From positions 5,004-69,003 of IMG/VR virus record IMGVR_UViG_3300012988_000003: a stretch of 64,000 bases of DNA. One strand, written 5' to 3'. This DNA is from a virus. The translations under genes and the position numbers were made by a program. The notes beneath the pieces were generated by a model, which was not told where the DNA came from, made no database searches, and saw only the letters and a list, made by a program, of their open reading frames with translations. Shown here in pieces: positions 50,481 to 52,440 of the stretch; the first letter of the stretch is position 1, and each line of letters begins with the position of its first letter.

Positions 50481-50663
50481 ATGAAATCTACATTAGGAAA
50501 AATTTATCTGACACTTGCCGGGATAGTGTTCACCGCAACCCTTGCAGCAGCGTACAATCATCAATCGCGCCAGGTAGTCACCTCTGGCCCAGTAGTAACA
50601 CCCCAGCAGCTTTGTTGCGATCCAATCTGTCCACCGCCGATTTCCTGTCCGCGCCAGAAATAG
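50481..50663 (+). CDS. Secreted Cys/Pro-rich peptide precursor
   Basis: GGAG RBS; signal MKSTLGKIYLTLAGIVFTATLAAA; C-terminus LCCDPICPPPISCPRQK. Confidence 0.7.
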   Translation: MKSTLGKIYLTLAGIVFTATLAAAYNHQSRQVVTSGPVVTPQQLCCDPICPPPISCPRQK

Positions 50664-50706
50664 TTTCCGCGTTCATGGGGTCGCACTGGACCGGGAGTGC
50701 GGCTCT

Positions 50707-51468
50707 ATGACGCTCGATTTGATCCTCTGGATTACACTGGCACTCGGCCAGTCTGTGCTTTCGGTGTTGGCCATACGCAGAAAAATCCGCTGCGCTTGGT
50801 TCCCGCAGTACATCTACTTTGTAACTACAAAAACATTCATATTGATGGCCGTTGCGTTCATCACGCGCGACTTGCGCCTGTACACCGTGATCAACATGGT
50901 AATGGCCGCAGTTGGCCCTTTCATCGCTTTACTGGTCGTCGGTTCACTGTGGCGTCAAACCTTTGGGTCTCCCGCTTCGCTTCCGCCCGGTACGCTGACA
51001 CGATTCCGCACGCTGGTTTTAGCTGTCATCTGTCCGCTGACCGTGGTGCTGATTAGTTTCTTCCGCGCGCACTCCGCGCACGCCTACTTCAACTCACTCA
51101 TCAACCTTGAAACCGTGGTTTTAAGCGCCTCTGCCGTCACTCTTGCCTTGATGGTTGTCTACTCAAAGCATCTGGGAATCTCGTGGCGCTCAAAGCCAGC
51201 GGGAATCGTAATCGGTTTTCTGTGCTCGTTTGGAACCAACTGGCTGGCCACCTTTCTGACCGGCCAGGAAATCATATCCATCTACGCTGCTCAGCGCATA
51301 GGGCTGGTGGCGTGTTTGATCTCACTCATTGTTTGGGCGCGTGTTCTGCTCGAAAAGGAACGTGACCCGGGAATGATCGCCGATGAACAACTTGATCGCG
51401 TACTGCAGGAATTTGGTCTCGCAGAAATGTTTGGTGCCAGGCTAAGGGTAAGACCAACTCATACCTAA
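50707..51468 (+). CDS. 7-TM membrane protein (putative peptide receptor)
   Basis: Seven hydrophobic segments and a short amphipathic C-tail; GGGAG RBS. Confidence 0.75.
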   Translation: MTLDLILWITLALGQSVLSVLAIRRKIRCAWFPQYIYFVTTKTFILMAVAFITRDLRLYTVINMVMAAVGPFIALLVVGSLWRQTFGSPASLPPGTLTRFRTLVLAVICPLTVVLISFFRAHSAHAYFNSLINLETVVLSASAVTLALMVVYSKHLGISWRSKPAGIVIGFLCSFGTNWLATFLTGQEIISIYAAQRIGLVACLISLIVWARVLLEKERDPGMIADEQLDRVLQEFGLAEMFGARLRVRPTHT

Positions 51469-51485
51469 AAAGCCCGAAAGTTTAG

Positions 51486-51911
51486 ATGAGGTTCGACATG
51501 ATTCTGGCCATGAGGCAACAGTTTGGAATACTGCAGCGGTTCGTTGTTGAGCAGGAAAAGATACCAGTGAAGTACCCCGATCTGCTCGACCGGAAAGAAT
51601 GGATGATTTACATGGGGCAAATAAAGCAGAAGTCGAGGCTGGCGGTTGAACTTTTAGACAAGCTCGACGACTCACTCACCGATGACAGCGAATTGACGTT
51701 TCACGTCATTGAAGCCCGGGTCCAGGGTGTGGAAACGCACCGAATGGCCAACAGTCTGTACCTGACCGGGGTATTCAGGAAAGTAACGTCAATCTCTGCC
51801 AAAGGAGAGCTGGTTCGAGCGCAGTATGATATTTTGAGTGAGCTCATAAAACACGTTTTTATGTTGCTCGGAAAGGCGGACTTGATTGCCCGTATCAGCC
51901 GAGCAATGTAA
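51486..51911 (+). CDS. Helical hypothetical protein
   Basis: Co-oriented after the 7-TM gene. Confidence 0.55.
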   Translation: MRFDMILAMRQQFGILQRFVVEQEKIPVKYPDLLDRKEWMIYMGQIKQKSRLAVELLDKLDDSLTDDSELTFHVIEARVQGVETHRMANSLYLTGVFRKVTSISAKGELVRAQYDILSELIKHVFMLLGKADLIARISRAM

Positions 51912-52440
51912 CGAGAGAAGAAGTACTTTGCCCAAGAGAGAACCACCGGAGACTCAGGCCGGCGGGAGCATCGAGGACACGATACTCCGAACGCTTGAGT
52001 CTCTGCGCGACCAGATGAAGAAAGCACGGCTGTTCCTTACGGCCGCTGAAGCTGCATGCGCACAGCTTGAGGCCATCCGCGCCGGCCAAGGCGCCGAGCC
52101 GCATCCACGAGCGATTGCCGACCTGCCCTACGTCGGCATGGACGTCATTGAAGCGATCCTGCTTCTGCTCAACGAACGCGACCGAGCTTTACCGCGCCAG
52201 GAGATCATTGATACCGTGCTGGCCCGCGGAGTCTTTGTCGGCAAGGGGATCGACGCCAAGGGCGAACCGGCGGTCCAAGTGGGAAAATCCCTGAAGTACC
52301 ATCTTCTTAGCCGAGACGAAAGACAGAGGACCTACGGTAAGCGGAATATCAAAGCGGTGGATCCGGTACTGCGCGAGATGAACGGACTGATTGGACGCTC
52401 CGAATGGCCGGATGAAAAGTTTGTGGTGGAGGCGAAGTGA
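51886..52440 (+). CDS. Winged-HTH protein with N-terminal coiled coil
   Basis: YVGMDVIEAILLLL...LPRQEIIDTVLARG. Confidence 0.55.
   Translation: MPVSAEQCNERRSTLPKREPPETQAGGSIEDTILRTLESLRDQMKKARLFLTAAEAACAQLEAIRAGQGAEPHPRAIADLPYVGMDVIEAILLLLNERDRALPRQEIIDTVLARGVFVGKGIDAKGEPAVQVGKSLKYHLLSRDERQRTYGKRNIKAVDPVLREMNGLIGRSEWPDEKFVVEAK

Follow-up and report, generated by a model that had tools for sequence, protein, structure and literature searches.

Does a temperate phage of soil bacteria carry a peptide communication system with a receptor in the membrane, and where could such a system come from? This question is raised by a small cassette of genes in the IMG/VR virus record IMGVR_UViG_3300012988_000003. 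The record is 69,003 bp long with direct terminal repeats, and it is a complete temperate phage genome from soil Acidobacteria (Terriglobia). The window analyzed here is the stretch of 64,000 nucleotides (nt) that covers bases 5004-69003 of the record, and positions below are those of the window unless a locus is named. The cassette consists of four open reading frames (ORFs) on the + strand, which encode a 60-amino-acid (aa) peptide precursor with a signal peptide and four Cys, a 253-aa membrane protein with seven transmembrane (7TM) helices, a 141-aa protein, and a protein read from a 184-aa ORF. These four ORFs had been described in the first-pass annotation, and they were confirmed in our analysis. 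We found that the first two genes form a pair that is real, recurrent, co-diversifying, and undescribed, and peptide sensing is the leading model for it.

The peptide gene

The coordinates of the cassette and its surroundings are listed in Table 1. The signal peptide of the precursor has an n-region with K2 and K7, a hydrophobic core, and a cleavage-type site between AAA and YN. The C-terminus, LCCDPICPPPISCP, carries the four Cys, and the precursor ends in LCCDPICPPPISCPRQK. The peptide gene is also overlapped, in a different frame, by a 95-aa ORF (50423-50710) that stays open in every relative. Compared with relatives, 6/10, 17/31, and 21/51 substitutions fell at the third codon position of the peptide frame. 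Because the third-position substitutions concentrate in this frame, the 95-aa ORF is probably not a gene. The same substitutions, together with a peptide architecture that recurs in the host loci described below, show that the 60-aa frame is the gene.

For the peptide, the 7TM protein, the 141-aa protein, and the 184-aa protein, no family above noise was found in Pfam, NCBIfam, PHROGs, or PADLOC. The search of the 7TM protein against Pfam gave only a below-cutoff row for DUF2678 (E = 0.003), and that of the peptide against PHROGs gave one row (E = 0.02) covering only the signal peptide. In addition, among the papers searched, none appears from its title or abstract to describe the pair. Both parts of the pair are families new to curated databases.

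Joint variation of the peptide core and the 7TM protein

DNA of related loci was available from two viral contigs (L002/L040 and L003/L039) and from one contig of an Angelobacter metagenome-assembled genome (MAG; L004). In three near relatives from different samples, the flanks of the cassette segment 50613-50932 were about 90-100% identical to the window, while the segment itself was 35-68% identical or could not be aligned. The segment opens with the codon for the first Cys of the peptide core and runs as far as residue 76 of the 7TM protein. For instance, the DNA identity between the window and L002 in 60-nt bins was 93, 100, 95, and 88% up to 50617, then 63, 68, 56, 68, and 35% across 50618-50917, and 83-100% thereafter. 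Two contigs from other studies showed the same joints: X2 (45.8 kb) and X3 (3.27 kb) both aligned at 80% or more up to 50619/50636 and again from 50932/50935, and in X3, 289 other letters replace 298 between the joints.

The proteins showed the same break. Residues 40-75 of the 7TM protein were 33% identical to those of L002, against 93% for residues 76-253. The variable part was likewise 28-33% identical to P0003, P0004, and P0005, against 90-93% for the rest. In P0006, a more divergent relative with 75% identity over the rest, the variable part was 69% identical and is better conserved relative to that background. Meanwhile, alignment of the five phage peptide variants showed that the leaders are near-identical in close relatives, one of them differing at 2/44 residues. 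The cores vary in residues and loop lengths and fall into five types, namely CC-DPI-C-PPPIS-C, CC-GNPI-C-PPI-C, CC-NPY-C-PPI-C, CC-GNPM-C-PPPLV-C, and CC-DPL-C-PPPLV-C. The core type of the window resembles that of the distant L004. Its junction between helices 2 and 3 (TRDLRLY) also resembles the L004 protein and P0006, unlike its closest overall relatives.

The chromosomal orthologs of the host family, which are few, compared without statistics, and include one pair from an unpublished genome, showed the same relationship between peptide and 7TM protein. Where the peptide loops were equal or near-equal, the N-terminal third of the 7TM protein was as conserved as the rest or more so (percent identity of N-third against rest: 93 and 94 for L030/L037, 75 and 63 for L028/L030, 73 and 62 for L028/L037). 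Where the loops differed, the N-terminal third was less conserved than the rest (46 and 82 for L012/L013, 57 and 82 for L019/L024, 59 and 79 for L007/L025, 69 and 74 for L020/L035). The proposal that peptide and 7TM protein co-diversify was thus borne out in phages, with the same trend in hosts: the N-terminal third of the 7TM protein varies together with the core of the peptide. We take this to mean that the two gene parts recognize each other and that selection or cassette exchange yields distinct allele pairs.

A chromosomal pair of the host family

Named close relatives of the cassette proteins came from MAGs of Candidatus Angelobacter only, a genus within Terriglobia, Acidobacteriota. Genomes were searched with the 7TM profile. 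It matched 94/301 genomes of the family to which the prophage-bearing MAG belongs, compared with 4/401 across the host phylum. The matches in the family were usually one copy per genome, with E values from 1e-21 to 1e-3.

We read 33 of these host loci with 1.5-kb flanks. By eye, 22 of the 33 have a small same-strand signal-peptide gene that is rich in Pro and ends in ...[DE]G.P.P.C(3-8)C. Half of these genes (11) precede the 7TM gene, and the other 11 follow it. Two of the positive loci (L015 and L025) come from unpublished genomes, and without them the count is 20/31. An automated filter found such genes on the same strand in 23/33 loci against 3/33 on the opposite strand; two of its 23 loci are spurious ORFs, and one of those two has a polyprotein that was seen by eye. 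With a peptide gene in 4/4 phage loci as well, the expectation that a variable Pro/Cys-rich peptide gene accompanies the 7TM family was supported.

Some host loci carry the peptide in many copies. There are three tandem peptide genes in L008 (about 2390-3030). In L012 (269-1124) and L013 (1-1111), one signal peptide is followed by 11 and at least 14.8 tandem Cys-loop repeats of 25-26 aa, respectively. L009 (about 790-1420) also has three tandem genes, and these encode a Pro-rich peptide without the Cys pair.

The other neighbors of the host pair, such as gyrB/dnaN, purQ, ispH, an aminomethyltransferase gene, and a DUF58 gene, vary between subgroups, and the sole constant partner of the host 7TM gene is the peptide gene. 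Meanwhile, the 141-aa protein was found in 1/301 and the 184-aa protein in 3/301 genomes of the host family, and the strong match each time was the prophage itself. The peptide and 7TM pair is a chromosomal host-family module carried by the phage and not a phage invention. The first-pass annotation had proposed a membrane-receptor peptide system of phages; the paired, co-varying, and receptor-like character of the genes stood, and their restriction to phages did not.

The prophage-bearing MAG also has a distant chromosomal 7TM paralog (G001:C117:30315-30923, L006; E = 6e-14) with a Pro-rich signal-peptide gene just 5' of it, so a lysogen would carry two modules. Homology search with the peptide found only two proteins; such small genes are seldom called. 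In addition, scans of metagenome contigs gave no further loci, those of viral contigs gave only the two known loci, and a scan with P0015, a 7TM relative, gave none.

Such a pair could also be a peptide toxin with a 7TM membrane immunity protein. The lysogen would export a disulfide peptide harmful to cells that lack the matching 7TM protein, which in turn would shield the producer. The prophage would then gain by killing non-lysogens, and the allele pairs would diversify in a bacteriocin-like manner. This explanation would account for the joint hypervariability of the peptide core and part of the 7TM protein, for multicopy peptide genes and polyproteins, and for a cassette in a moron-like position at the prophage end; the 7TM genes without a nearby peptide gene could be orphan immunities. 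However, the best-conserved parts of the 7TM protein face the cytoplasm, which immunity does not need, and the host pair is single-copy at fixed housekeeping positions (gyrB/dnaN, purQ, ispH) and not in variable islands. Furthermore, neither an exporter nor a double-glycine leader nor a known immunity family turned up in Pfam, NCBIfam, and PADLOC, and the peptides appear short, hydrophilic, and near neutral rather than membrane-active. On balance, we regard a toxin and immunity pair as unlikely.

Fold, topology, and conservation of the 7TM protein

Among 5.8 billion clusters, we found 14 close homologs of the 7TM protein (53-100% identical, 240-256 aa), whose contigs are either 62-71 kb long or short. 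A profile of 14 phage proteins matched at least 150 clusters at E ≤ 1e-3, and 55 at 1e-10, among 1.84 billion representatives. Most of these clusters are stand-alone proteins of about 250 aa, and a Pfam scan of 28 of them found a membrane-protein family in none.

Seven transmembrane helices were predicted twice. The first model, built from 14 sequences, had a predicted local distance difference test score (pLDDT) of 60 and was too poor for use. The AF2 model from 80 sequences reached a pLDDT of 87.7 and a predicted template-modelling score of 0.79, and its seven long helices are followed by two short ones at the C-terminus. Counts of Lys and Arg in the loops, read by the positive-inside rule, place the N-terminus outside and the tail inside. 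Conservation across 68 family members (one phage representative and 67 distant ones) is highest in inner loops 2 and 3 (identity to consensus 0.51 and 0.56) and lowest in outer loops 1 and 3 (0.15 and 0.18). Recurring motifs, namely E..[WY].[KR].FGP...LP, LGI.WR, and W...L..KE, lie at the inner face.

In the structural comparison with VIA-align, almost all of the top 50 matches were 7TM receptors of the G protein-coupled receptor (GPCR) type or receptor-like domains. The GPCR matches had Z scores of 10.2-12.0 with root-mean-square deviations of 3.6-5.1 Å over 174-199 aligned residues, which is below the caution line of the tool for helical bundles. Foldseek gave nothing significant, and its best row was an adhesion GPCR (E = 0.06). 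No match to the Pfam 7tm families was found at E ≤ 0.1. We describe the model as a GPCR-like bundle, a term that does not mean homology, and the likeness may reflect a common helical arrangement. The predicted fold and the conservation pattern suit a receptor. When the mature peptide (residues 25-60) was modelled together with the 7TM protein, the complex scored 0.01, which counts neither way.

The 7TM protein could instead be an AgrB-like enzyme that processes or exports the peptide, with the true receptor elsewhere. Polyprotein precursors need cleavage, and AgrB too co-varies with AgrD, according to PMC10482373. However, the only invariant residue among the 80 aligned members is W210, and at no position is a Ser, His, Cys, Asp, or Glu invariant or nearly so. 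Furthermore, the peptides already carry Sec signal peptides, and no Pfam protease family was matched. We consider an AgrB-like role highly improbable. An intramembrane protease or an oxidoreductase was ruled out, as the protein has no conserved catalytic-type residues and no CxxC motif.

The 141-aa and 184-aa proteins

In the window, the gap between the peptide gene and the 7TM gene is 43 nt, that between the 7TM gene and the 141-aa gene is 17 nt, and the 184-aa ORF overlaps the gene before it. The peptide gene lies 44 nt upstream of the 7TM gene in 4/4 phage or prophage loci. The order of the four genes is kept in 3/3 related phage or prophage loci with DNA (L002, L003, and L004). Because the order recurs in all three, the arrangement is more than chance.

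The 141-aa protein is 54-96% identical in the three relatives. It had been called helical, and the sole basis for this is an Atlas model of low confidence (pLDDT 0.54). We also considered a fusion, and this idea was dropped, as the 141-aa protein has no similarity to the C-terminal extension of P0084, a longer family member (hhalign probability 0.2%).

The homologs of the 184-aa ORF begin with MPKREPPE, which corresponds here to a TTG at 51928, 17 nt past the stop of the 141-aa gene and preceded by a purine-rich stretch. The real product is probably about 170 aa long. All of its 11 homologs belong to this phage group, with a spread of contig sizes like that of the 7TM homologs. The first-pass annotation had named a winged helix-turn-helix (HTH) protein here. 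A structural lead in this direction was found: residues 78-176 of the Atlas model resemble HARE-HTH (PF05066 clusters) with template-modelling scores of 0.56-0.72, depending on the target, which is under the bar of the tool. The sequence gave no Pfam match at E ≤ 0.1, the HARE-HTH profile PF05066 included. Alignments of the 141-aa and 184-aa proteins against PDB profiles gave nothing usable, and for the latter only L20 appeared, at E = 0.08.

The first-pass annotation had also counted a regulator as part of the cassette, and for the hosts this point needs correction. The host loci have no regulator adjacent to the pair, and the 141-aa and 184-aa genes are phage-lineage genes linked to it by synteny only.

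Among more distant relatives, P0015 is only about 35% identical to the 7TM protein, P0174 is 43% identical to the 184-aa protein, and the longest contig of each is 6,970 nt. The two may share one contig, and if they do, the link between the 7TM protein and the HARE-HTH-like protein would reach a more distant lineage.

Upstream element and position at the prophage end

The 60 nt 5' of the peptide gene are strongly conserved and include the hexamer TACAAT, a GGAG Shine-Dalgarno sequence, and an inverted repeat at 50453-50470. TACAAT was missed by a promoter consensus scan, and its -35 element is weak; we take it as a candidate own promoter of the cassette. The hairpin in the 5' untranslated region (5'-UTR) has a minimum free energy of -19.7 kcal/mol (z = -4.29), and 0/200 shuffles were as good. 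Its consensus is kept in four loci, with no compensatory changes and with three pairs broken in L004. The core inverted repeat of the hairpin, CCGC..GCGG, is invariant in the four loci and could alternatively be a protein-binding site.

In L004, the peptide gene lies about 200 nt from a fragment like a tRNA 3' end, and beyond this fragment there are genes for a CHAT-domain protein and a di-haem oxidoreductase. No complete tRNA was found at this edge. These features fit an integrated prophage in which the cassette is the outermost operon, with the boundary placed by inference. The conserved TACAAT and Shine-Dalgarno sequence and the edge position in L004 would suit expression from a lysogen.

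Superinfection exclusion would also fit a cassette that sits at the prophage end and has a promoter-like element of its own. In such a system, the membrane protein, assisted by the peptide, would keep the DNA of related phages out of the cell, and the variable part would track the entry machinery of competitors, which agrees with a membrane protein whose periplasmic face is variable. However, the pair is chromosomal and non-mobile in about a third of the sampled host-family genomes, it has no match in the exclusion and defence families of PHROGs or PADLOC, and the joint change of the peptide core and helices 1-3 would be left unexplained. We judge this explanation very unlikely.

A proposed ligand and receptor model

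We favor the reading that the peptide and the 7TM protein are a cognate ligand-receptor specificity module, derived from the host and expressed from the prophage end, and we hold it tentatively, at somewhat less than an even chance. This reading fits best because the 7TM protein has a variable outer half, a conserved inner face, and no catalytic residues, and because the peptides are short and hydrophilic with high-dosage precursors. The peptides are also Pro-rich and not amphipathic, and their hydrophilic, Pro-rich character would favor a ligand. Furthermore, triplicated genes and polyproteins suit a released ligand better than a 1:1 subunit.

According to this model, the precursor would be exported by Sec and its signal peptide cleaved; the core would possibly be trimmed further, and its cysteines would be oxidized in the periplasm. 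The core would then enter the 7TM bundle from the periplasm and dock at helices 1-3, and the 7TM protein would relay the event to the cytoplasm via its conserved inner loops and tail. As for its origin, a phage lineage would have acquired the module from Terriglobia and moved it to the end of the prophage, where a promoter of its own would drive it in an operon with two phage genes, of which one encodes a probable DNA-binding protein. The chain might then run from the peptide through the 7TM protein and the 141-aa protein as an adaptor to the DNA-binding protein, as the synteny suggests. Different allele pairs of peptide and helices 1-3 would give each lysogen a private channel (a "pherotype"). 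In this way, a lysogen could recognize kin lysogens or kin phage and adjust the gene expression of the prophage or the host. What the data show is the gene pair with its recurrence, the hypervariability that both parts share, and the pattern of topology and conservation. From the processing and binding of the peptide to transduction, the roles of the 141-aa and 170-aa proteins, and a lysis-lysogeny output, these steps are what we infer.

Several points weigh against the ligand-receptor model. Its weakest point is the diderm envelope of the hosts: Sec export ends in the periplasm, and the cassette has no outer-membrane export component, so that cell-to-cell signalling is hypothetical. An output domain or a known transducer is neither attached to the host 7TM protein nor conserved beside it. 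Joint hypervariability is equally expected of toxin and immunity pairs, and the 141-aa and 170-aa proteins are tied to the pair by synteny. In addition, a peptide gene within 1.5 kb is absent in 7/33 host loci (two of them with a truncated flank), four others (L006, L009, L010, and L011) have Pro-rich peptides without the Cys pair, and the structural matches of the 7TM protein (Z ≤ 12, Foldseek E = 0.06) stay under the helical-bundle line.

The envelope also suggests another explanation, in which the peptide is a periplasmic accessory that acts in cis and tunes the 7TM protein or reports to it, for example on the envelope or redox state via its disulfide; the phage copy would rewire the envelope response of the host. 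MgrB-type small proteins, which act on PhoQ, are a model for such a peptide. Sec export in a diderm delivers just to the periplasm, a function for export across the outer membrane is not encoded, the Cys pair is conserved, and host-family genomes have the gene pair as a single chromosomal copy. However, there is no obvious reason why a cis-acting accessory should show allele-type replacement among near-identical phages, or why it should need 11- to 15-fold repeat precursors or triplicated genes. We think that this explanation is quite unlikely.

A wider form of the ligand-receptor model would be that Terriglobia possess GPCR-like receptors for Sec-exported, disulfide-looped, Pro-rich peptides and that phages have wired a copy to a DNA-binding protein. 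This wider claim is doubtful at present.

Comparison with known systems

The closest working parallel, by analogy and not by membership, would be the hypervariable unit of agr. According to PMC10482373, the specificity groups of agr are set by a variable segment that includes agrD and the part of agrC for the membrane domain; here too, the gene of an exported peptide adjoins that of a multi-helix membrane sensor candidate, with one contiguous hypervariable segment. However, the cassette has no AgrB, histidine kinase, or response regulator (no match to PF04647, HATPase_c, HisKA, or LytTR), its peptide has a Sec signal peptide and disulfide-type Cys and not a thiolactone, the host is a diderm, and there is no sequence relation. 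A phage can also carry a host-type signal cassette: phiCDHM1 has agrD, agrB, and agrC of the host type (Hargreaves et al. 2014, PMC3901668), and the phage-borne candidate signal cassette described here likewise has chromosomal relatives in the host group. The difference is that the protein families are others, and both parts here belong to undescribed families.

Arbitrium (AimP/AimR/AimX) of Bacillus phages uses a secreted pro-peptide with phage-specific variants, and it has been proposed as kin communication of temperate phages. Its receptor is a cytoplasmic TPR/HTH protein that the peptide reaches through import. The cassette is similar in that the gene of a secreted, variable pro-peptide (five variants here) lies beside that of a candidate receptor. 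However, the candidate receptor is a 7TM membrane protein and the module is host-derived, and no TPR, XRE, or AimR-like receptor was matched by the cassette proteins in Pfam, NCBIfam, or PHROGs.

In yeast, alpha-factor is made from a secreted tandem-repeat precursor and is sensed by Ste2, a seven-helix receptor with its N-terminus outside. The repeat precursors of L012 and L013 and an N-out seven-helix protein with conserved inner loops recall this system, and Ste2 was among the Foldseek rows for the 7TM protein. Nevertheless, the structural likeness is that of a common bundle (Z ≤ 12) without a sequence relation, and we know of no G proteins in bacteria.

Sec-dependent class II bacteriocins combine a disulfide peptide that has a signal peptide with an adjacent multi-pass membrane immunity protein. 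They share with the cassette the neighboring peptide and membrane-protein genes with co-varying alleles. The cassette differs in its shorter, hydrophilic peptides, in the cytoplasmic side of the conserved 7TM face, and in having no match to a bacteriocin or immunity family in Pfam, NCBIfam, or PADLOC.

Genomic neighborhood of the cassette

The phage encodes structural and packaging proteins, RecT, an exonuclease, an endolysin, and three DNA methyltransferases. Metagenome contigs from four runs pile up exactly at the attP core, and in 3/4 of these runs contigs extend upstream of it into sequence like a tRNA 5' half. The L003 contig begins within this core. The first-pass annotation had placed the cassette beside attP. 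It is indeed near the integrase and the tRNA-like core, about 0.9 kb from the latter, and a methyltransferase gene intervenes.

Table 1. Positions of the cassette, its subfeatures, and neighboring features (window coordinates unless a locus is named)
Feature	Position	Strand	Remarks
Xis-like HTH_17 gene	48195-48422		Lysogeny module, ahead of integrase
Tyrosine integrase	48419-49471	+	PF00589 E 2e-19; phrog_1 E 8e-39
attP core, tRNA 3'-half-like	49567-49617	+	Ends in ...GCGCGCCA; read from sequence
N6/N4 DNA methyltransferase	49687-50385	+	PF01555 E 1.7e-11; separates attP from cassette
TACAAT, -10-like hexamer	50439-50444	+	Invariant in four loci
5'-UTR hairpin	50446-50476	+	GGAG Shine-Dalgarno of the peptide gene (50471-50474) lies in the 3' arm
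Peptide precursor, 60 aa	50481-50663	+	Signal peptide aa 1-24; conserved pro-region aa 25-44; Cys/Pro core aa 45-58 (nt 50613-50654)
Hypervariable "specificity" segment	50613-50932	+	About 320 bp: peptide core, intergenic spacer, 7TM residues 1-75
Seven-helix membrane protein, 253 aa	50707-51468	+	Predicted N-out/C-in, GPCR-like bundle; two short helices form the cytoplasmic tail
141-aa soluble, probably helical protein	51486-51911	+	Phage-lineage-specific; 17 nt after 7TM gene
Protein of probably about 170 aa	51928-52440 (ORF opens 51886, 184 aa)	+	Predicted N-terminal helix and C-terminal HARE-HTH-like winged helix; phage-lineage-specific
57-aa ORF	52437-52610	+	Second exchangeable slot (52428-52612), directly 3' of cassette
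L002 slot ORFs	2599-3684 (L002)		At attP side of peptide gene
L003 slot ORFs	184-1068 (L003)		At attP side of peptide gene

The slot between attP and the peptide gene holds exchangeable cargo: it has the methyltransferase in the window and different ORFs in L002 and L003, and it is empty in L004. The methyltransferase is likewise skipped or replaced in the X2 and X3 contigs, which come from two runs. A second slot lies at the 57-aa ORF. It has other sequence in L003, and the X2 and X3 contigs skip 183-211 nt there, with 521 other letters in X2 and 18 in X3 between.

As had been noted before, no CI with a peptidase domain is present. The S24-peptidase repressor family (PF00717) had 0 matches in the whole 69,003-bp record, while control genomes do score, and Pfam scans of 58 window ORFs gave only small HTH proteins as DNA-binding candidates. 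Only two further candidates were found: one is an 82-aa protein (46952-47200, - strand) with a weak LexA-type winged-helix match, divergent from the operon of methyltransferase, xis, and int genes, and the other is a 96-aa Fis-type HTH protein (37220-37510, - strand). Either of these two could be the phage repressor.

Some other features of the genome were also recorded. The two further methyltransferase genes lie at 47395-48198 and 57463-58113. Just 3' of the cassette is a + strand array of six tRNAs (53268-53742; Gly-TCC, Thr-CGT, Thr-GGT, Thr-TGT, Ala-TGC, Pro-TGG), preceded by a terminator-like hairpin (53232-53254). A small basic protein (52758-53051, - strand) with the motif KRKLSAAAK.RISQAMK.RW is kept in L003 and L004 and has no family match. 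Furthermore, the structural region contains a single ORF of 2,334 aa (22869-29873), which gave only a weak match to a PHROG of unknown function.

Significance

Peptide signalling between cells is textbook knowledge for monoderm bacteria and their phages (agr, Phr, arbitrium). To our knowledge, it is almost unknown in diderm bacteria, and we know of no described bacterial seven-helix peptide receptor without a kinase or cyclase domain. The pair is a testable candidate, as it consists of two short genes whose allele pairs predict specificity swaps (peptide core against residues 1-75 of the 7TM protein). In addition, many genomes of the acidobacterial host family, some of them perhaps from cultured strains, have relatives of the pair on the chromosome.

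Even as a toxin and immunity pair or an envelope-sensing pair, the two genes would represent two new protein families and a new lysogenic-conversion cassette. If the ligand-receptor model is true, a phage would carry a host-type signalling module in an abundant and little-understood soil phylum. In its wider form, the model would mean peptide communication in diderm bacteria with pherotype-like allele pairs, through which lysogens would recognize their kin and tune induction, immunity, or the behavior of the host.

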